Shown piece after piece: positions 5,548 through 64,000 of a stretch of DNA of 64,000 nucleotides. The notes under the pieces are model-generated. The model searched no databases, was not told where the DNA came from, and was given only the letters and a program-made list of their open reading frames with translations. The DNA is from Eledone cirrhosa (Eukaryota): contig OZ024761.1 of the NCBI GenBank assembly GCA_964016885.1, positions 23,932,001 to 23,996,000 on the forward strand, written 5' to 3'. Numbering within the stretch: the stretch's first letter is position 1; every line of letters begins with the position of its first letter. The position numbers and the translations under genes are program-made.

Positions 5548-5721
5548 TAGATAGATATTTATATATATCTCTATATATATATGTATATATATAATGTATA
5601 TATATATATATATATATACACATATATGTGTAAGAAACTATAAAGTACATATACGCACAGATGTCTCAAATTCTGATTGTTTTGGTACATACATTCAGGT
5701 CTTTACGTATGTATGTATATC

Positions 5722-5839
<118 letters not shown>

Positions 5840-5984
5840 AATATAGGTGCAGCTACACATTGTTAAGTATATATACATACAAAACATACGTACACTTATG
5901 CATGTATATATACATATATTTGTTTACATATATTTATATGAATTTATAATTGCATATATATATATGTACTTGACTTATGTTTCG

Positions 5985-7332: not shown

Positions 7333-7529
7333 TATAACGAAGGAAATGTGGTAAGGAACCAGGTGGACCATAACGCACCAAAGTACTCAATACTTAGGGT
7401 TGTAGAGTGGGTAATAGGAACGAGTAGGACCCCGACGGCTGAGCTCAAGCCGTTTCGACGGCTAATTCAGTCCAGAATTAGCCGTCGAAACGGCTTGAGC
7501 TCAGCCGTCGGGGTCCTACTCGTTCCTAT
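7333..7529. mobile_element. Family A hammerhead-derived element as a head-to-head inverted pair (55-bp arms 7414-7468 / 7475-7529) in (TA)n
   Basis: GAAA-CGGCT-loop-AGCCG-TC is a hammerhead helix III with a GUC site. Other copies at 18122, 18829, 23905, 50522-50820 and (partial) 36957. Confidence 0.8.
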
Positions 7530-18039: not shown

Positions 18040-18119
18040 ATTACACAAATATGACCCTCCCCAAGTATGGGTGCCCCAGCATGGCCTCAGCCGGATGGCT
18101 GAAACAGGTAAAAGAGTAA
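18040..18119 (+). mobile_element. Probable SINE 3' end
   Basis: GTGCCCCAGCATGGCC...GCTGAAACAGGTAAAAGA resembles a cephalopod SINE tail (recalled similarity, not verified). Confidence 0.45.
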
Positions 18120-18121
18120 TA

Positions 18122-18277
18122 TATAACGAAGGAAATGTGGTAAGGAACCAGGTGGACCATAACGCACCAAAGTACTCAATACTTGAGGTAGTAGAGTGGG
18201 TAATAGGAACCAGTAAGACTGAGTCCAGAATTAGCCGTCGAAACGGCTTGAGCTCAGCTGTCGGGGTCTTACTGGTT

Positions 18278-18281
<4 letters not shown>
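18122..18281. mobile_element. Family A element, inverted pair with short overlap
   Basis: ATAGGAACCAGTAAGAC ... GTCTTACTGGTTCCTAT, followed by (TA)n. Confidence 0.8.
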
Positions 18282-18724: not shown

Positions 18725-18990
<266 letters not shown>

Positions 18991-23883: not shown

Positions 23884-23904
23884 CCTTCGTTATATATATT
23901 TATA

Positions 23905-24113
23905 TATAACGAAGGAAATGTGGTAAGGAACCAGGTGGACCATAACGCACCAAAGTACTCAATACTTAGGGTAGTAGAGTGGGTAATAGGAACGAGTAGG
24001 ACCCCGACGGCTGAGCTCAAGCCATTTCGACGGCTAGTTCTGGACTAAAATGATTTTAGTCCAGAACTAGCCGTTGAAACGGCTTGAGCTCAGCCGTCGG
24101 GGTCCTACTCGTT

Positions 24114-24118
<5 letters not shown>
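23905..24118. mobile_element. Family A element with 66-bp palindromic arms centred on 24052
   Basis: Centre ...CTGGACTAAAAT-G-ATTTTAGTCCAG...; flanked by (TA)n. Confidence 0.85.
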
Positions 24119-37667: not shown

Positions 37668-37721
<54 letters not shown>

Positions 37722-37732
37722 GTCTGTCTATA

Positions 37733-37781
<49 letters not shown>

Positions 37782-37798
37782 GTCTGTCTGTCTGTCTC

Positions 37799-37830
<32 letters not shown>

Positions 37831-37878
37831 TCTATCTGTCTGTCTGTCTATCTATCTCTCTGTCTGTCTATCTATCTC

Positions 37879-37935
<57 letters not shown>

Positions 37936-37936
37936 A

Positions 37937-37985
<49 letters not shown>

Positions 37986-38006
37986 GTCTGTCTGTCTGTC
38001 TCTCTG

Positions 38007-38061
<55 letters not shown>

Positions 38062-38126
38062 GTCTGTCTGTCTATCTATCTCTCTGTCTGTCTATCTATC
38101 TATATGTCTGTCTATATATCTATCTA
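37667..38126 (+). repeat. (TCTA)n/(TCTG)n compound microsatellite
   Basis: Directly visible. Confidence 0.95.
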
Positions 38127-38296
38127 TTCAGACCACAAATTCAGACCACAAATTAGTCACCTGCATAGTCAACCTTGATCGAATACATAGACAGGGACCC
38201 GGATACTGGAAGCTAAACATGTCGCTACCGGCGCGTAAGGCCTACAGTAAACGGATTAGCACCTTAGTTAAGAGCCAGTTGACGGGTGCCGTCGTC
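38127..38296 (+). mobile_element. Tx1/L1-clade LINE ORF2 fragment (end of APE domain)
   Basis: SDHKLVTCIVNLDRIHRQGPGYWKLN...QLTGAVV aligns to TDHKLVTCVVNLEKTHRQGPGYWKLN...RLTGAIV at ~63207-63362. Confidence 0.9.
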
Positions 38297-44400: not shown

Positions 44401-44526
44401 GCCATTACTAAAGTCTGCTGGCTCAACGGGACAGTACTTATCCTGATTTCCTTGGCATGAAGTCACTGAGAGTACAACACCATCCCCCTGGACAGGACGC
44501 CAGTCCATCGCAAGTTTAATCACACA

Positions 44527-45190
44527 GGCTGACATACCAGGTCAACACAATAGCTGAGATATTACACAGTAGCTCAACACGGTGATTGAGATATTACACT
44601 CTAGTTCAACACACTATCTGACATATTACACACTAGCTAAACATACTATCTGACATATTACACAGTAGCTCAACACACTGGCTGACATACTACACACTAG
44701 TTCAACACAGTGGCTGACATACTACACACTAGCTCAACATGGTGGTTGAGATATTACACACTGGCTGACATATTACCCAGTAGCTCAACACACTGGCTGA
44801 CAAACTACACACTATCTCAACACACTGGCTGACATATTACACACTAGCTCAACACTCTGGCTGACATATTACACACTAGCTCAACACACTGGCTGACATA
44901 CTACACACTAGCTCAACGCACTGGCTGACATATTACACACTAGCTCAACGCACTGGCTGACATATTACACAGTAGCTCAACGCACTGGCTGACATATTAC
45001 ACACTAGCTCAACACACTAGCTGACATACTACACACTAGCTCAACGCACTGGCTGACATATTACACACTAGCTCAACACACTAGCTGACATACTACACAC
45101 TAGCTCAACGCACTGGCTGACATATTACACACTAGCTCAACACACTGGCTGACATATTACACACTAGCTCAACACACTAGCTGACACTAG
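44527..45190 (+). repeat. 32-bp minisatellite (CTGGCTGACATATTACACACTAGCTCAACACA), ~20 copies
   Basis: Period of 32 confirmed between 44825 and 44857. The 5' copies are more degenerate. Confidence 0.95.
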
Positions 45191-45215
45191 TGGAACACTC
45201 CTCATGGAAACCGGC

Positions 45216-45620
45216 CAGTACTACAGAGTGTGACAAATATATGAACCCTTACATATTTCTCAGGGAGATTCAGTACTACAGAGTGTGACAGATATATGAA
45301 CACTTACATATTTCTCAGGGAGATTCAGTACTACAGAGTGTGACAGATATATGAACACTTACATATTTCTCAGGGAGATTCAGTACTACAGAGTGTGACA
45401 GATATATGAACACTTACATATTTCTCAGGGAGATTCAGTACTACAGAGTGTGACAGATATATGAACCCTTACATATTTCTCAGGGAGATTCAGTACTACA
45501 GAGTGTGACATATATATGTACAATTACATATTTCTCAGGGAGATTCAGTACTACAGAGTGTGACAGATATATGAACCCTTACATATTTCTCAGGGATATT
45601 CAGTATGACATAGTGTGTGA
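45216..45620 (+). repeat. 55-bp minisatellite, 7 copies plus a degenerate end
   Basis: CAGTACTACAGAGTGTGACAGATATATGAACACTTACATATTTCTCAGGGAGATT at 45216, 45271, 45326 and onward. Confidence 0.95.
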
Positions 45621-48400: not shown

Positions 48401-50365
48401 CATACCCACCCTCACACACACACACACACACATAAACACACCAGGAAATCTACACACAGTGACACATCGTTGAACTATGCCGAAAATGAAAGTAGTGAGA
48501 AGAGAAAAAAAAAGGCGCCATTTTGTTAACTTTCATTGCTTGTTTATTTGTATTTAAACTGAGGCCCTTTTTATATATATTTTTAGGGGGTCACAGCAGG
48601 GGATATTAAAATGGCGGCGGCTTGTGTTTTAAAGTAATTGCAACGTGTAAAGTTAACAACAACAACAACGTGTAAAGTTAACAACAAAAAAATATAGGAA
48701 GAACAGCTCCAACAACAACAACAACACCACCACTACCATTTCCACTACCGTCACTACCACCACCAACATCACCAGCACCACCTACACTACCACCTACACC
48801 ATCATCACCAGCACTATCACCACCAGCACCACCTCCACCACCACTACCAAAACTACCACCTCCACCACCACCACCACCACCACCACCACCGCCACCACCT
48901 CCACCATCATCACTACCAACTCCACCACTACTATAACCATCACTACCACTACTACCACCATCATCACCACCACCACTACCACCACCATGACCACCACTAC
49001 CACCATCATCACCACCACTACTATAACCACCATGACTACCACCACCACTACCACCATCATCACCACCACTACTATAACCATCACTACCACCACTACCACC
49101 ACCACTACCACCATCATCACAACCACCATCACTACCACCACTACTATAACCACCACTACCACCACCACCACCACCACCACCACCACCACCACCACCAGTT
49201 GTTGGTGTTGGTGTTGTTGTTGTTGGTGTTGGTGTTGTTGGTGTTGTTGGTGTTGGTGTTGTTGTTGTTGGTGTTGTTGGTGTTGGTGTTGGTGGTGTTG
49301 TTGTTGGTGTTGTTGGTGTTGTTGGTGTTGGTGTTGGTGTTGTTGTTGTTGTTGGTGTTGGTGTTGTTGTTGTTGTTGGTGTTGGTGTTGGTGGTGTTGT
49401 TGTTGGTGTTGTTGGTCTTGGTGTTGGTGTCGGTGTTGTTGTTGGTGTTGTTGTTGTTGTTGGTGTTGGTGTTGGTGGTGTTGTTGTTGGTGTTGTTGGT
49501 CTTGGTGTTGGTGTCGGTGTTGTTGTTGGTGTTGGTGTTGGTGGTGTTGTTGTTGTTAGTGGTGTTGTTGTAATACTCTGGAAGGTTTAAAGAGAACATC
49601 TCCAGCTTAACCTTAGACCAGCAGAAGACCAGGATATTAACATACCGTTGTTCTGTTAACAGAGTAATTCTTATTCCTAAATGAATAACTTATTAACATT
49701 CTTAAATCCTCACATTCCACCATTCTACTGCCGTCGTATTCCGTCATTCCACAGGCAACCTATTATATGTCTTCAAGGGGGTGGATTGGCAGAATCGGTA
49801 GAGCGTCGGACAGCATGCTTTATGGCATAGAGTTATTGCCAACGACCTTCACACACACACGCACACGCACCCCACCCCCCACACACACTCACTCACATAC
49901 ACAGATACATGCACTCACACATCCACACAGACAAATACACACACACACACGCACACAGACAGAGGTACCCACACACACCCACACTCACACACACTCACAC
50001 ACACCCACCCACACTCACACACACACACATACACGCACAGACACTTGCACAGACACACACACCCACATACAGCCACCAGCACCCACACACAGACACACAT
50101 ATACCCACACTCACACATACCCAGCCCGGTTCCAGAATCAGGTTCGATCATTAATAGACCGTTCCTCGAGCTGATCGACAATGAAACATATGTAATATGT
50201 AATTAAATATGTATATAATACAACACTGATTCTTTGTTCCCTTATATGTTAATACTATGGATACACTGCTCCCCAAGAGCACGGAGTGCTCATTCGGCAT
50301 ACCGCCTACGGACGCAATTAATTTGTACGTTAATACATATATATATATAGGAAAATGTTTGACCC

Positions 50366-50974
50366 CGTCCACCATATAACTTCTTTCACCATGGCCACCG
50401 TACAGAGGAAAACCGCCTCTCTTTCGTTTTTGAAAGAGTCTGGCGGTTTGATCCTTACTATGGACTCGATAGATAGATATACTGTGGTTACCCCTGATTG
50501 AACCCGGAATAACTTTATATATATATCGAAGGAGTTGTGGTAAGAAACCAGATGGACCATAAAGCACCAGAGTACTCAATACTTAGGGTAGTAGAGTGGG
50601 TAATAGGAAAATGTTTGACCCCGACGGCAGAGCTCAAGCCGTTTCGACGGCTATTTCTGGACTCCATCACCATTACAGACCAGAAATAGCCGTCAAAACG
50701 GCTTGAGCTCTGCCGTCGGGGTCAAACATTTTCCTATTACCCACTCTACTACCCTAAGTATTGAGTACTCTGGTGCTTTATGGTCCATCTGGTTTCTTAC
50801 CACAACTCCTTCGATATATATATAAAGTTATTCCGGGTTCAATCAGGGGTAACCACAGTATATCTATCTATCGAGTCCATAGTAAGGATCAAACCGCCAG
50901 ACTCTTTCAAAAACGAAAGAGAGGCGGTTTTCCTCTGTACGGTGGCTATGGTGAAAGAAGTTATATGGTGGACG
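50366..50974. repeat. 295-bp-arm near-perfect palindrome (50366-50660 / 50680-50974)
   Basis: The arms are reverse complements, with about 2 mismatches seen and a 19-bp spacer. The same ORFs appear on both strands in the track. Confidence 0.95.
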
Positions 50975-51418
50975 AGGTTGAGAGGACTGAGGACAGATGC
51001 CTTTCTCTCCGGACAACAATTGATTCCCTTCTTTAAGTATCACTTTAGAAGGAGAATCAGGGTGGAGAGAGAGGCACTGCACCCCAGTAAATTTACTGAA
51101 AGGTGGGTGAATGAAGCGAAAATGGCCCGAGTGATTGGGCCTTCTCTGTTTATAAGCCTGTAAGTTGAGGAAGAGAGCAAAAGGAAGAAAGGAGCACTTG
51201 CACAACACGCTCCTCGAGTTGAGGGTTGTTCTATCGACGGGGTATTAAACAACCCATTTGTGGCGCCTCCCCCCCTATTGGGGATTTCGATTGTTGAAAT
51301 TGTTTGTTTGTTTTTATATTTTTTACACGACTGTATATAAAATCTCCGGCATGTCTTTGTATTGTCCCCTTTCTTGTTGCGCCCTTGTGGCTAATAAAGA
51401 AATCTATCTATCTATCTA
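50862..51418 (+). mobile_element. 5'-truncated Tx1/L1-clade LINE 3' end with 3' UTR, AATAAA and (TCTA)n tail
   Basis: C-terminus ...VAMVKEVIWWTR...FTERWV..., stop at 51163, AATAAA at 51393, (TCTA)4 at 51403. Confidence 0.7.
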
Positions 51419-51609
51419 TGATGAAGGTAGTGGTGATGGTACCAGTGGTAGTGGTAGTAGTGGTGGTAGTAGTGGTGGTAGTAGTGGTGGTGGTAGTAGT
51501 GGTGGTAGTAGTGGTGGTAGTGGTGATGGTAGCAGTAGTGGTGGCAGTAGTGGTGAAAGTAGTGGTGGTAGCAGCAGTAGTGGTGGTGATGGTAGCAGTA
51601 GTGGTGATG

Positions 51610-59509: not shown

Positions 59510-60287
59510 GTTTATCTCTTTCTCTCTCGCTTTCTCTCGCTTTCTCACTCTCTCTTTTTCTCCCTCTTCATATGTATGTCAATATATATGTGACTCTGTC
59601 CCTTTCTATACTCACTATATTCTTCATATATATCTATATATCTATATTTGTTTCTTTATGCATATATATATATACGAGTATGAATGTTGATATATATGTA
59701 TGGATACATACATACATGTATGTATGTATGTATGTATGTATGTATGTATGTATGTATGTATGTATGTATGCATACATGTATGTATGTATGTATGTATGTA
59801 TGGATGGATGGATACATGTATGCATATATGTATGGATGTATGTATGTATATATGTATGTATATATCTATTATGTATGTATGTATATATCTATTATGTATG
59901 TATGTATATATGTATGTATATATCTATTATGTATGTATATATATGCACATATATACGTACGTATATTTACGGATGTATGGATGAATGTACGTATACCTTA
60001 AAAGCATAGGCAATAATTCTAAATAGATTTTTGAAAATTCATGATTCAAGACAACCATGTGAGCATGTTATATATTACAGTTTAAAAAAGTTGTTTGTCA
60101 TAACGATATCACACAATATCACTGACTGAGTTCACCCCGCGTAGACATTGTCAGTGAAACAGTACTGTGCTGTCACATGCTATTATTGTAAAAATATTGG
60201 AACGGTTTCAACGCCATCATGCGGTGAATAAACAAAACACTGCCATATTGAAATCGATAGTTGTGTGTTTATCTTGTTGCGAATAAT

Positions 60288-60290
<3 letters not shown>

Positions 60291-60383
<93 letters not shown>
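60291..60383 (+). repeat. (TCTA)n microsatellite directly upstream of the LINE
   Basis: Directly visible. Confidence 0.95.
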
Positions 60384-60623
60384 TAAATCTAGCTGTCGTC
60401 TGTTCTACAGTGTGGATGTCATTCACTTCGCACAGAAGTTTTGTTCAAATTTATTGAGGAAATTTTGTGAGTTCAAACTTAATTTTGATACAATTGTGTA
60501 GCTTGACCCTCCGTCTGAACTGTCAGGCGGTGGGTCAGCTCATCTTTACCCCTCCTAGAGGTGAAAAACCTGTTTTAAAAAAAAAAAAAATTTTGTGTAA
60601 AAAATTTCAATCGTCTAACAGAA

Positions 60624-62501
60624 ATGTTAAACGCAGCGAACGAAAATAGTGGTGGGGGGACAGCGGTAAGAGTTGTAAGCTCGCACGCTTTAGTCCTCCC
60701 TTCCTTCCCAACTAACGTCATAGAGAAGGAAGGAAAAATGAAAATAAAAACGGACGAATCTGCGGAGAAAAAATTAAATGTCGAAAACAACGAAGAAAAA
60801 AAATTTGAAAAATTGCATGACAATACTAATAACACAAACAAAGACACAACAAACAAAAAAATAACAGTTGAAAATAACATAATATCAGAAAACAAAGCAG
60901 ACGACAAGACTTCATTTGCACAGAAAACAAAGAAATCTTTGACTTATATAGCGGAAAACATTTCAGATGTGGTACGAAGGATCACGGACGCAAAACAATA
61001 CATAAGTGAAGGTGAGAATGGTATTTTATTGGTAAAAATGCCTCAAGAATTCACGAAAGACATTGAAAGCCGAACGGTCAAGTTTCGGACCATCAACAAC
61101 AGTACAAAAAAACCTGAACAGCCTTCTCAAGCAGATATCAAAACAGTACTCGCAGAAGTACTGAATGAAACAACTTTCATAAGAAAAGACAGACTGTATG
61201 GAAGCCTAGCAATTATCATGAAGAACGAATCGGCGGCAAAAAAATGTGCTTTGTCACCGATTCGTTCGAAAAATTTCACCTTTTATCCATCTTATATGGG
61301 AAAAAAAACTCAACGCATATGGCTGGATGCAATGATGCCAGATGTGGACTACTGCTGGCTCATAGCTGGCTTCATCGATCCAGTGAATGACAACGTGATT
61401 TCCATTGGGAAAACCACAGGCAATGCGTTCAGTGGAACAGGTATAGAGCTGGTAGTACAAATGAAGCCTGAACGCATCGCCCAAATACCCGACAGAATCC
61501 TATTAGAGGACCACGGGTATATAAACATTAGCGTGGAGGGGAGAAGGCCGTCCTGCCATATCTGTGCAGGCAGAGGGCACCTGAAGGCCGCTTGTCCCCA
61601 GCTCAACAAAAAGAAAACCCTGCTACCAACACCAGCTCCACCACCACCACCACAACAGATAAACAAACAACAAAACTCAGTCCCACCCAACCCGTCCCTC
61701 AGTAACACCACAACACCACCACAACACAAACAGTCACAACACATTACCCCAAAACAAAATACAGGCCCACCCAACCTCTCACTCAATAAAACAACACAAC
61801 CACCGCAGACACAACACACAACACAGTCTAACATAGTGACATCCATCTCCCCCACAAAGAAAACCAACACGGAAACATTACCAGCAAACATACCTCTTCC
61901 CTCCAACACTGAAGATAACCCAACGAATTCGGAGGAAGAAACGGAGTCCTTCAGACAGATTAAAAGGAAAAAAAGAAAACATGTGCAAAACACACAAGGA
62001 CAAACAACCCCCACCCAAATCGCAACACAATCTAACAAAACAGAAAACACCCCTCCAGCAACAAACAAAACCAAACCTGCCCCTCCCCTCTTCGAAACAC
62101 TCACACCATCGGAAAAAAAGACATTACACTATACTTACATCAACAGAAACAATAATAAATTAAATGAACTCATATACAATAATCCTTCGGTACAAACCGA
62201 AGGTGTAAACTTTGTTTCATCAGAAAACCACCCACATTTAAAACTAATAAAAATCCCAATGAACCTCTACCAAAAACTAAAAAAGGATTTTAAGGAGGAC
62301 GTAGGACCACCCTCTGTCAAACCCATAAACCGCGTCCTACTAAAAAGCTTTCCCCCTCCCCTTCCCCTCCCCAACACAACTCCAAACACCCCAACCCCAC
62401 CACACACCGACGACCCCACACCACCACAAGACACCCCTTCACCCAACACCCCCGACCCCATGGAAGTCGTGCAACCCGAACCCCGGGAAGCGGAAAGGTA
62501 G
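60624..62501 (+). CDS. LINE ORF1 (gag-like, CCHC zinc knuckle, Pro/Thr-rich C-terminus), 625 aa
   Basis: Long non-repetitive ORF. CHICAGRGHLKAAC fits CX2CX4HX4C. Confidence 0.9.
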   Translation: MLNAANENSGGGTAVRVVSSHALVLPSFPTNVIEKEGKMKIKTDESAEKKLNVENNEEKKFEKLHDNTNNTNKDTTNKKITVENNIISENKADDKTSFAQKTKKSLTYIAENISDVVRRITDAKQYISEGENGILLVKMPQEFTKDIESRTVKFRTINNSTKKPEQPSQADIKTVLAEVLNETTFIRKDRLYGSLAIIMKNESAAKKCALSPIRSKNFTFYPSYMGKKTQRIWLDAMMPDVDYCWLIAGFIDPVNDNVISIGKTTGNAFSGTGIELVVQMKPERIAQIPDRILLEDHGYINISVEGRRPSCHICAGRGHLKAACPQLNKKKTLLPTPAPPPPPQQINKQQNSVPPNPSLSNTTTPPQHKQSQHITPKQNTGPPNLSLNKTTQPPQTQHTTQSNIVTSISPTKKTNTETLPANIPLPSNTEDNPTNSEEETESFRQIKRKKRKHVQNTQGQTTPTQIATQSNKTENTPPATNKTKPAPPLFETLTPSEKKTLHYTYINRNNNKLNELIYNNPSVQTEGVNFVSSENHPHLKLIKIPMNLYQKLKKDFKEDVGPPSVKPINRVLLKSFPPPLPLPNTTPNTPTPPHTDDPTPPQDTPSPNTPDPMEVVQPEPREAER

Positions 62502-62534
62502 GTCTCTACACTCTCCTTTGGCTCTGCCGCCCAC

Positions 62535-64000
62535 ATGGATGTGTTAAGAGTAGGATGTTTGAATGCACGTGGCCTGGGCTCAACTTGGAAGCAAGCAAAG
62601 CTTCTAAATGACCTCAGGTCATGTAGTATAAATGTAATGGTTATCTGTGAGACTCGAATCAGCGTCATGCGGCAGCTGGCCCCCACCTTCGATGACTTTG
62701 AGGTGCATGCATCTCTCTGTCAACCTGGAGGTGGGGGTGGGGTTGTCGTGCTGATGCAAAAACACCTGGGTCTTGCCGTACAGGTTGTGCACTCGGACCC
62801 GGAGGGTCGTTTGTTGGTGCTAGACGTTGGCAGTAGTGAAAGTGCGGCCTTGAGACTGGTCGCCGTCTACTCCCCTTTCGGAGCTGAACGGCCCGACTTC
62901 TTCCAGCGTTTGGAGACTTTTCTGGGAACGTCGCGTTCCCTGCTTCTAGCGGGGGATTGGAATGACATCCTAGATGCACGTTGGGACTATGCAGGAGCAT
63001 GTCCTAATAGAGGGGGGTGTAACAGCCTCAAGGGGTTACTCGACCGTTTTAACTTGGTCGATAGATATCGACTAGATTTTCCAACTGTGTCTACCTGGAC
63101 TTGGAGAAACCACAGTGGTCAATCTAGATCGTACTTAGATAGATTCTTAGTTAGAAGTAAGGATAGGGACATATTAAGCTGTCCAGAAATGCGCACGGTT
63201 GGCTACACGGATCACAAATTAGTGACCTGCGTGGTCAATCTCGAGAAAACACATAGACAGGGTCCCGGTTACTGGAAACTTAATTTGTCTTTACCGGCAA
63301 AAGAGACTTACAGAAACCGGATTAGCAGATTAGTTAAGGAGAGGTTGACGGGTGCAATCGTCAACAACCGATGGTGGGCATCTCTCAAAAGAGAGATTAG
63401 AACAGAATCAATAAGTTATAGCAAGATGTTAGCTGCCAATAGGAATAGAAACGAGAAAGAATTAACAGGTAAATTAGAAGAGGCAATCAAGAGCGAAGAT
63501 GTGGCCAGAGTGCTGGCATCGAGGACGGCATTGAACCAGTTTTTCGATGCAAAGCATGAAGGCTGCGTCATTCGAAGTAAAATACGTGCTCTAGGTAATG
63601 AGGGGGCCAAAGCCGTTGGATGGGCCCGCGTGACAGAAGCTAAAAGTGGAAATCGATCCACCATCCGGTCGTTGCAAGACGAAGATGGACGAGTGATCCG
63701 GGAGCCTAAGCAGATGTGCGAGGCCTTTCAAAAGCACTTTGCCCGATTGTTCGGGGGAGGCGAGGGTCCGGGCCGGGGCGTGGATTTCGGTCCATACCTC
63801 GACGGCCTGCCGCGTCTCTCGAACAAAGAGGCGGAGTCCTGCGAGGGACCAATCTCGGCTGATGAGATCGGAGATGCGCTGAGCCAATGCAGCAGACGCA
63901 AATCTCCAGGTCTCGATGGTATACCTTACGAACTTTATTTAGCAATGCCGGTCTTCTTCTCCGAACTCCTCGAAGCGGTCTACTGCAATTGGCAGCAGAA
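62535..64000 (+). CDS. LINE ORF2 N-terminal part: AP-like endonuclease and linker up to the RT domain (partial)
   Basis: MDVLRVGCLNARGL, ICETR, AVYSP, GDWN, YLDRF, TDHKLV, GYWKLN, KSPGLDGIPYELY. No terminated plus-strand ORF is listed here, consistent with a frame open to the window end. Confidence 0.92.
   Translation, partial: MDVLRVGCLNARGLGSTWKQAKLLNDLRSCSINVMVICETRISVMRQLAPTFDDFEVHASLCQPGGGGGVVVLMQKHLGLAVQVVHSDPEGRLLVLDVGSSESAALRLVAVYSPFGAERPDFFQRLETFLGTSRSLLLAGDWNDILDARWDYAGACPNRGGCNSLKGLLDRFNLVDRYRLDFPTVSTWTWRNHSGQSRSYLDRFLVRSKDRDILSCPEMRTVGYTDHKLVTCVVNLEKTHRQGPGYWKLNLSLPAKETYRNRISRLVKERLTGAIVNNRWWASLKREIRTESISYSKMLAANRNRNEKELTGKLEEAIKSEDVARVLASRTALNQFFDAKHEGCVIRSKIRALGNEGAKAVGWARVTEAKSGNRSTIRSLQDEDGRVIREPKQMCEAFQKHFARLFGGGEGPGRGVDFGPYLDGLPRLSNKEAESCEGPISADEIGDALSQCSRRKSPGLDGIPYELYLAMPVFFSELLEAVYCNWQQ

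Follow-up and report, generated by a model that had tools for sequence, protein, structure and literature searches.

An L1/Tx1-type LINE lineage of Eledone cirrhosa that probably favours (TCTA)n microsatellites as insertion sites

Introduction

Long interspersed nuclear elements (LINEs) of the Tx1 clade have been described that insert into (TC)n, (TTC)n, (TTCC)n, and (TTTC)n microsatellites (PMC4494074; here and below, literature statements refer to the available portions of the papers cited). Kibi on (TC)n and Koshi on (TTC)n are known from teleost fish, and the crocodilian elements Tx1-1_Crp, Tx1-5_Crp, Tx1-6_Crp, Tx1-1_Gav, and Tx1-2/3/5/8_AMi use (TTCC)n or (TTTC)n (PMC4494074, PMC3812793); microsatellite specificity was assigned when more than 20% of copies were flanked by the repeat (PMC4494074). 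Waldo on (ACAY)n, Mino on (AC)n, Dong on (TAA)n, and the NeSL-related Togen on (TG)n also land in microsatellites (PMC3812793, PMC4640811), and ACAY, AC, TC, TTC, and TAA targets are listed in a review, according to which the mechanism of microsatellite targeting by LINEs with an apurinic/apyrimidinic endonuclease (APE) is not well understood (PMC3812793). Tx1L-EN is known to nick its own target specifically (PMC1950540). The L1-Tx1 group has expanded in coleoids (PMC13282606, PMC8967140), and Octopus vulgaris is reported to harbor 80 L1-Tx1 families over 56 Mb, of which 13 were recently active with 421 insertions (PMC13282606). Here we analyze a 64,000-bp stretch of the Eledone cirrhosa genome, hereafter the window (assembly GCA_964016885.1, contig OZ024761.1, positions 23,932,001 to 23,996,000), that ends in the 5' half, with open reading frames, of an L1/Tx1-type LINE that is young and has many copies. 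Our best explanation, which we regard as probable, is that the lineage of this element inserts preferentially, and in one orientation, into (TCTA)n/(TAGA)n microsatellites.

Like Kibi, Koshi, and the crocodilian Tx1 elements, the present lineage would be an APE-type LINE found preferentially in a microsatellite, with several related families using one repeat class. The likeness is one of description rather than sequence, and the targets differ: those of the described elements are pyrimidine-only on one strand, whereas TCTA contains A, and the repeats at the 5' junctions are TCTA and not the (TC)n or (TTC)n of Kibi or Koshi proper. Waldo, Mino, Dong, and Togen are likewise non-long-terminal-repeat retrotransposons that land in microsatellites, and Waldo has a four-base unit, but their units are other than TCTA; Waldo and Mino belong to the R1 clade. 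The element is probably among the L1-Tx1 families of O. vulgaris or their kin, again by description and not by sequence, and no target preference is given for those families in the available portions of their descriptions (PMC13282606, PMC8967140). No TCTA or GATA target was found in the portions of the literature searched, and the single mention of TCTA in the portion of PMC3812793 available stands in a table of mutation rates, not of targets; Repbase, the 2004 work of Kojima and Fujiwara, and Figure 3 or the supplements of PMC4494074 may list one. On evidence that is good but incomplete, TCTA is a new target repeat, in a new host group, for a known sort of element.

Results and discussion

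The main copy occupies 60385-64000 directly behind a (TCTA)23 array and consists of a 5' untranslated region (UTR), an open first open reading frame (ORF1), and the open start of ORF2 (Table 1). This is the layout of the L1 group, in which an ORF1 with a CCHC knuckle precedes an ORF2 with an N-terminal APE domain. ORF1 has a long C-terminal part rich in P, T, and Q; its match to Pfam zf-CCHC is weak (E 0.32), its Atlas neighbours have zf-CCHC (score 0.92), and its residues 100-335 found no homologue among 667 candidates. The APE domain was recognized as PF03372 (E 3.9e-08), and ORF2 matches human L1 ORF2p (E 6e-12) with the seven APE residues of Table 1 aligned, to which we presume that the catalytic roles of their L1 counterparts apply. 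ORF2 is cut by the window end just ahead of the reverse transcriptase (RT) domain; RT (PF00078) and zf-RVT (PF13966) are carried by a relative, P0003 (912 aa), which is 62% identical to the main ORF2. No Rfam match occurs within the 64-kb window, and no Keno-type insertion into U2 small nuclear RNA was found there. The two reading frames share a frame and are separated at 62499-62535 by one TAG and 11 codons, so that readthrough or reinitiation is possible. A preliminary description of this locus had reported a TCTA array directly ahead of the element, an open ORF1, and intact APE catalytic motifs, all of which are confirmed here, the last by the alignment to human L1 ORF2p. It had also called the element young and apparently intact. 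The former is supported by the copies considered next, and the latter holds for the 5' half, in which ORF1 and 488 aa of ORF2 are open.

Nine public runs from five studies contain part of this stretch. Four of the 13 listed runs (contig runs X1, X4, and X5 and raw-read run X11) were aligned to 60364-64000, a reference that included 20 bases of TCTA, at a likeness threshold of 88. A zero-mismatch contig of 110 nt covers 60391-60500 at a depth of 2604 and another covers 63263-63361 at 5645, as compared with about 10 for single junction contigs, which suggests hundreds of near-identical copies, summed depth not being a copy number. Among 40 listed substitutions (464 more were found), 38 lie in the reading frames; 22 are silent, 16 are missense, and none touches a stop. 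Raw-read depth at 60385 is 207, against 163-236 further inside the element. An alternative start at about 60419, at the CATTCACTTC motif 36 bp past the array, was rejected in favor of about 60385 because 60391-60500 is itself multi-copy. A one-base gap at 60385 accounts for 1440 of a depth of 3720 in X5 and for 12 of 207 reads in X11, and a two-base gap at 60384 for 171 of 3337 and 56 of 204, respectively. Such gaps need aligned TCTA upstream, and therefore many full-length copies start behind TCTA.

Truncated copies begin behind the same repeat. The alignments yielded 18 joints, 15 of them listed: six internal deletions, one longer array, and eight connections of TCTA to the element interior. 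Four of the eight (60847, 61625, 61629, and 61708) fall in low-complexity ORF1 with unidentified letters between the two sides and were dropped as likely spurious. The other four lead from TCTA into ORF2 at 62633, 63252, 63876, and 63902, with 2-7 known letters between, and are represented by one X5 contig each, at depths of 10.1-10.8 for the first three and 79.9 for the last. The 62633 joint recurs in one raw read of X11, which comes from a different sample and study, and at 63902 the TCTA repeat runs directly into an internal ATCT of the element. By chance, 0.2-0.4% of window positions on both strands coincide with such a TCTA run or closely follow one, a background that falls to 0.04-0.17% without the Tx1-linked tracts. 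The binomial probability of at least four TCTA hits ranges from 8e-08 (20 junctions, 0.2%) to 0.04 (313 junctions, 0.4%); it is 5e-05 to 7e-04 for 100 junctions and 0.004 to 0.04 for 313, a number that takes every partly aligned X5 contig as if it were a junction. With four read joints and two window pieces set against 0.2-0.4%, the 5' flanks are enriched for TCTA above background, and we are fairly confident that the lineage prefers this repeat.

The window holds two further pieces, and all three have TCTA on the 5' side and on the same strand. Piece 2 is identical to the main element at 117 of 153 nt (76%) and 37 of 51 aa, and 20 of the 36 differences are at third codon positions; on this comparison it belongs to a different but related family or subfamily, one that diverged under selection. 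Piece 3 is 65% identical to residues 814-912 of P0003 (E 6e-34) and does not overlap the main element. The sole link between the two is P0003, which bridges the window pieces: its identity is 62% with the main ORF2, 73% with piece 2, and 65% with piece 3. The repeat letters 50864-50872 translate as L-S-I and align to L-S-A of P0003, so the repeat at this 5' junction may be partly element coding sequence. Its 3' end reads AATAAA-GAA-(ATCT)4 (the repeat at 51402-51417) with no poly(A), in agreement with the preliminary description, which had further assigned all three pieces to one family with TCTA at each 5' junction. The single family was not borne out. The junctions stand for the array at 60289 and the degenerate tract at 37668, but the repeat at 50861 is open to the reading as codons just given. 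In two related families at least, TCTA thus precedes truncated starts within ORF2, and a preference common to several families is a stronger reading than one confined to a single young family. The 5' junction of piece 3 also lies inside a 302-nt inverted duplication, 99% perfect with a 13-nt spacer (50362-50978), in which the beginning of this piece and a portion of a dispersed repeat are duplicated and which may be a real fold-back or an assembly artefact.

Table 1. Features of the main copy and of the two other element pieces in the window
Feature	Coordinates	Strand	Remarks
(TCTA)n array, about 23 units	60289-60383	+	5' flank and inferred target; 92 bp perfect (regular expression) plus 3 bases
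5' UTR	60385-60623	+	Element start about 60385; copy-rich contig over 60391-60500 and raw-read depth
ORF1, 625 aa	60624-62501	+	ATG 60624, stop 62499-62501; one CCHC knuckle at 61554-61595
ORF2, N-terminal 488 aa	62535-64000	+	ATG 62535, open until window end; same frame as ORF1
APE endonuclease	62535-63215	+	N10, E39, Y112, D141, N143, D202, and H227 all present; F115 at usual place of Asn
Degenerate TCTA/TCTG tract, about 460 bp	37668-38128	+	Precedes piece 2
Piece 2, internal ORF2 fragment	38129-38296	+	38144-38296 = 153 bp; related family; short duplication at 5' junction; without 3' end
Three TCTA units, TATCTATCTATC	50861-50872	+	5' junction of piece 3; some letters can be read as codons of the element
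Piece 3, ORF2 C-terminus, 3' UTR, and AATAAA	50864-51401	+	Stop 51161-51163; AATAAA 51393-51398; related family
(ATCT)4-AT	51402-51419	+	Follows the sole 3' end in the window; may be tail of the element, leftover target, or both

Argonauta hians is the source of the closest named proteins (P0165, with 58% identity to P0001, and P0050, with 68% identity to P0003), which points to an octopod host. A scan of genome contigs returned 38 loci (L081-L117 and L122; 77 matches) in one record (G001) that is labelled as an Arenicella metagenome-assembled genome, and these loci are evidently animal DNA mis-binned as bacterial. They form head-to-tail arrays, with a period of about 6.4-6.8 kb, of full-length and mostly open LINEs (e.g., G001:C9, C19, and C5). 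Each unit ends at AATAAA plus a few bases and is followed directly by the next; 5' ends vary between subfamilies, and three array ends retain the first bases of a further unit. The arrays look self-targeted. Their ORF2 is 34%-39% identical to P0001 and about 42% identical to P0003, and their ORF1 is related as well, that of the main copy matching it with E 4e-09. A quick tree of 81 rows was built on the RT of P0003, with L019 and L023 excluded as too short; in it, an octopod group (four rows, support 99) is sister to the G001 group (98), with a joint support of 100. This sister lineage thus resembles the present one in both reading frames and in its place in the tree but differs in joining its units directly, without TCTA, and in retaining the Asn of the APE loop. 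After Y112, 5/5 covering rows in the close group lack this Asn (they have F, F, T, I, and T; three of these rows are short unnamed fragments assigned by similarity), whereas 5/5 sister rows retain it. F115 of the main copy (62877-62879) stands at the Asn position of the APE Y-x-P-N motif and is a candidate specificity site.

Loci flanked by U2 (L002, L006, L007, and L008) or 5S (L009 and L119), at 32%-39% identity, are placed elsewhere in the RT tree, in which the deep forks are weak or open; L010, L013, L014, and L018 were labelled as 5S-flanked in the tree by eye or by near identity and not by Rfam. U2 and 5S flanks are Tx1-type targets (PMC4494074). Membership of the Tx1 clade is likely; the RT phylogeny proposed in the preliminary description now groups the octopod rows with the G001 lineage, and formal Tx1 placement would call for named Tx1 references, which this tree does not include. 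Several of the U2-flanked (Keno-like) loci also match U2 a few hundred bases inside, as in L007, with matches at 1-123, 782-896, and 5806-5947. Locus scans of viral, metagenome, and genome contigs with P0001 and alignment A2 returned nothing, and alignment A3 found nothing in viral contigs and no close relative in metagenome contigs, where the best 80 of 538 matches are all 23%-42% identical. Viral contigs were also scanned for the junction motif, with 0 matches.

Several observations weigh against a TCTA preference. Non-TCTA flanks appear as loose ends, of which the best 24 of 485 by support were seen, a ranking that hides single-copy junctions and provides no denominator; the 13 listed on the 5' side look, by eye, like diverged relatives or A-runs and not like unique flanks. 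Joints with a side below 30 or a likeness below 95 are often repeat-derived, which matters with a reference holding 20 bases of TCTA at a likeness of 88, and for three of the four ORF2 joints a single contig from a single run is the only evidence. None of the copies observed combined both flanks with a target-site duplication in a long array; the sole one with both sides visible, piece 3, has three and four units and is rearranged. There is also no TCTA at the junctions of the sister lineage, and the sole TCTA array in those loci lies in an unrelated flank, so kinship gives the preference no support. The enrichment stands as a preference; the specificity for TCTA/TAGA proposed in the preliminary description would, in a strict sense, go beyond it.

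One rival explanation would dispense with a specific nick. If RNA ending in UCUA primed wherever a loosely specific nick exposed TAGA-like bases, the tail would guide insertion, and some TCTA-to-ORF2 joints would be nested insertions, in which the 3' tail of one copy entered an ATCT-like word inside an older one, and not 5' truncations. The sole visible 3' end, with its ATCT repeat in place of poly(A), is what such a process would leave; the 63902 joint lies on an internal ATCT, a word that occurs 15 times in 3.6 kb of the element; in the sister lineage, new units are inserted head to tail behind existing ones; and a reference with just 20 TCTA bases hides what lies further upstream of the joints. 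However, no clear element 3' end was detected upstream of the arrays at 60289 and 37668, where the best match to the 3' UTR of piece 3 was attained in 32 and 158 of 1000 shuffles, respectively. A 10-base word shared by 60274-60283, before the 60289 array, and 51372-51381, before the AATAAA of piece 3, was reached by 15/1000 shuffles as compared with 16/1000 for a control tract. The notion that the 60289 array is the tail of an upstream element is thus unsupported beyond a weak 10-base match near 60270. In addition, the active-site loop of APE differs from that of the sister lineage in 5/5 covering rows, which fits a change of enzyme. A TCTA tail alone does not explain both the TCTA-to-ORF2 5' junctions and the full-length starts behind TCTA; the four additional ORF2 joints in public contigs and those full-length starts are a favorable outcome of the flank comparison proposed in the preliminary description. 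We consider tail guidance improbable.

It is less probable still, and in our view quite unlikely, that there is no real targeting, such that insertions merely persist in a microsatellite-crowded genome while TCTA expands afterwards out of ATCT seeds at the ends of elements or is attached to them by assembly error. The window is indeed rich in microsatellites, with 350 tandem-repeat rows and 14,634 of its 64,000 bp in perfect repeats; four of the eight joints between TCTA and the element fall in low-complexity sequence and seem spurious; and piece 3 lies inside a fold-back that is possibly an assembly artefact. Yet the AGAT class makes up 488 of the 14,634 bp, and AT, AC, AG, AAC, and ACAT repeats are each commoner, while the three window junctions are all TCTA on the same strand. 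One of the read-derived joints also recurs in an independent raw-read run.

Under the preferred reading, insertion into TCTA arrays would follow target-primed reverse transcription, the established insertion biology of LINEs. The TAGA strand would be nicked by the APE domain, and the TAGA end released in this way would base-pair with the 3' end of the RNA, which may consist of AATAAA and a few UCUA units as in the single observed 3' end; cDNA synthesis would be primed by this pairing. Joining of the cDNA to upstream TCTA at short ATCT-like matches would then produce truncated copies that still start behind TCTA. Whether the endonuclease is the main cause of the preference is evenly balanced in our estimation. 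A possible, if rather doubtful, extension is that the octopod lineage gained TCTA/TAGA targeting independently of Kibi and Koshi through a reshaped APE loop that lost the usual Asn, with the sister lineage aiming at its own ends and so giving rise to tandem arrays. If this is true, a comparison of the two lineages would be well suited to show how an APE endonuclease changes its target, and the octopod lineage would be a major force in both breaking and building GATA-class microsatellites in the genomes of these animals.

The locus adds a repeat and a host group to the list of Tx1-type targets, and GATA-class markers in these animals may adjoin mobile DNA. If the preference is real, the enzyme would be convenient to assay, the family being young, its APE domain open, and its target a simple unit of four bases. 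The value of the element as a site-specific insertion tool, for which it had been singled out, is weak because the target is repeated thousands of times in animal genomes.

Two other repeat types were observed in the window. Copies of a dispersed repeat, about 190 bp long and containing a hairpin, are present at 7337-7526, 18119-18279, 18825-18988, 23902-24115, and 50519-50821, and (TA)n lies beside several of them; the repeat resembles miniature inverted-repeat transposable elements or Helitrons and possibly seeks TA repeats. Two neighbouring minisatellite-like arrays, with periods of roughly 55-80 bp, occupy 44521-45617.

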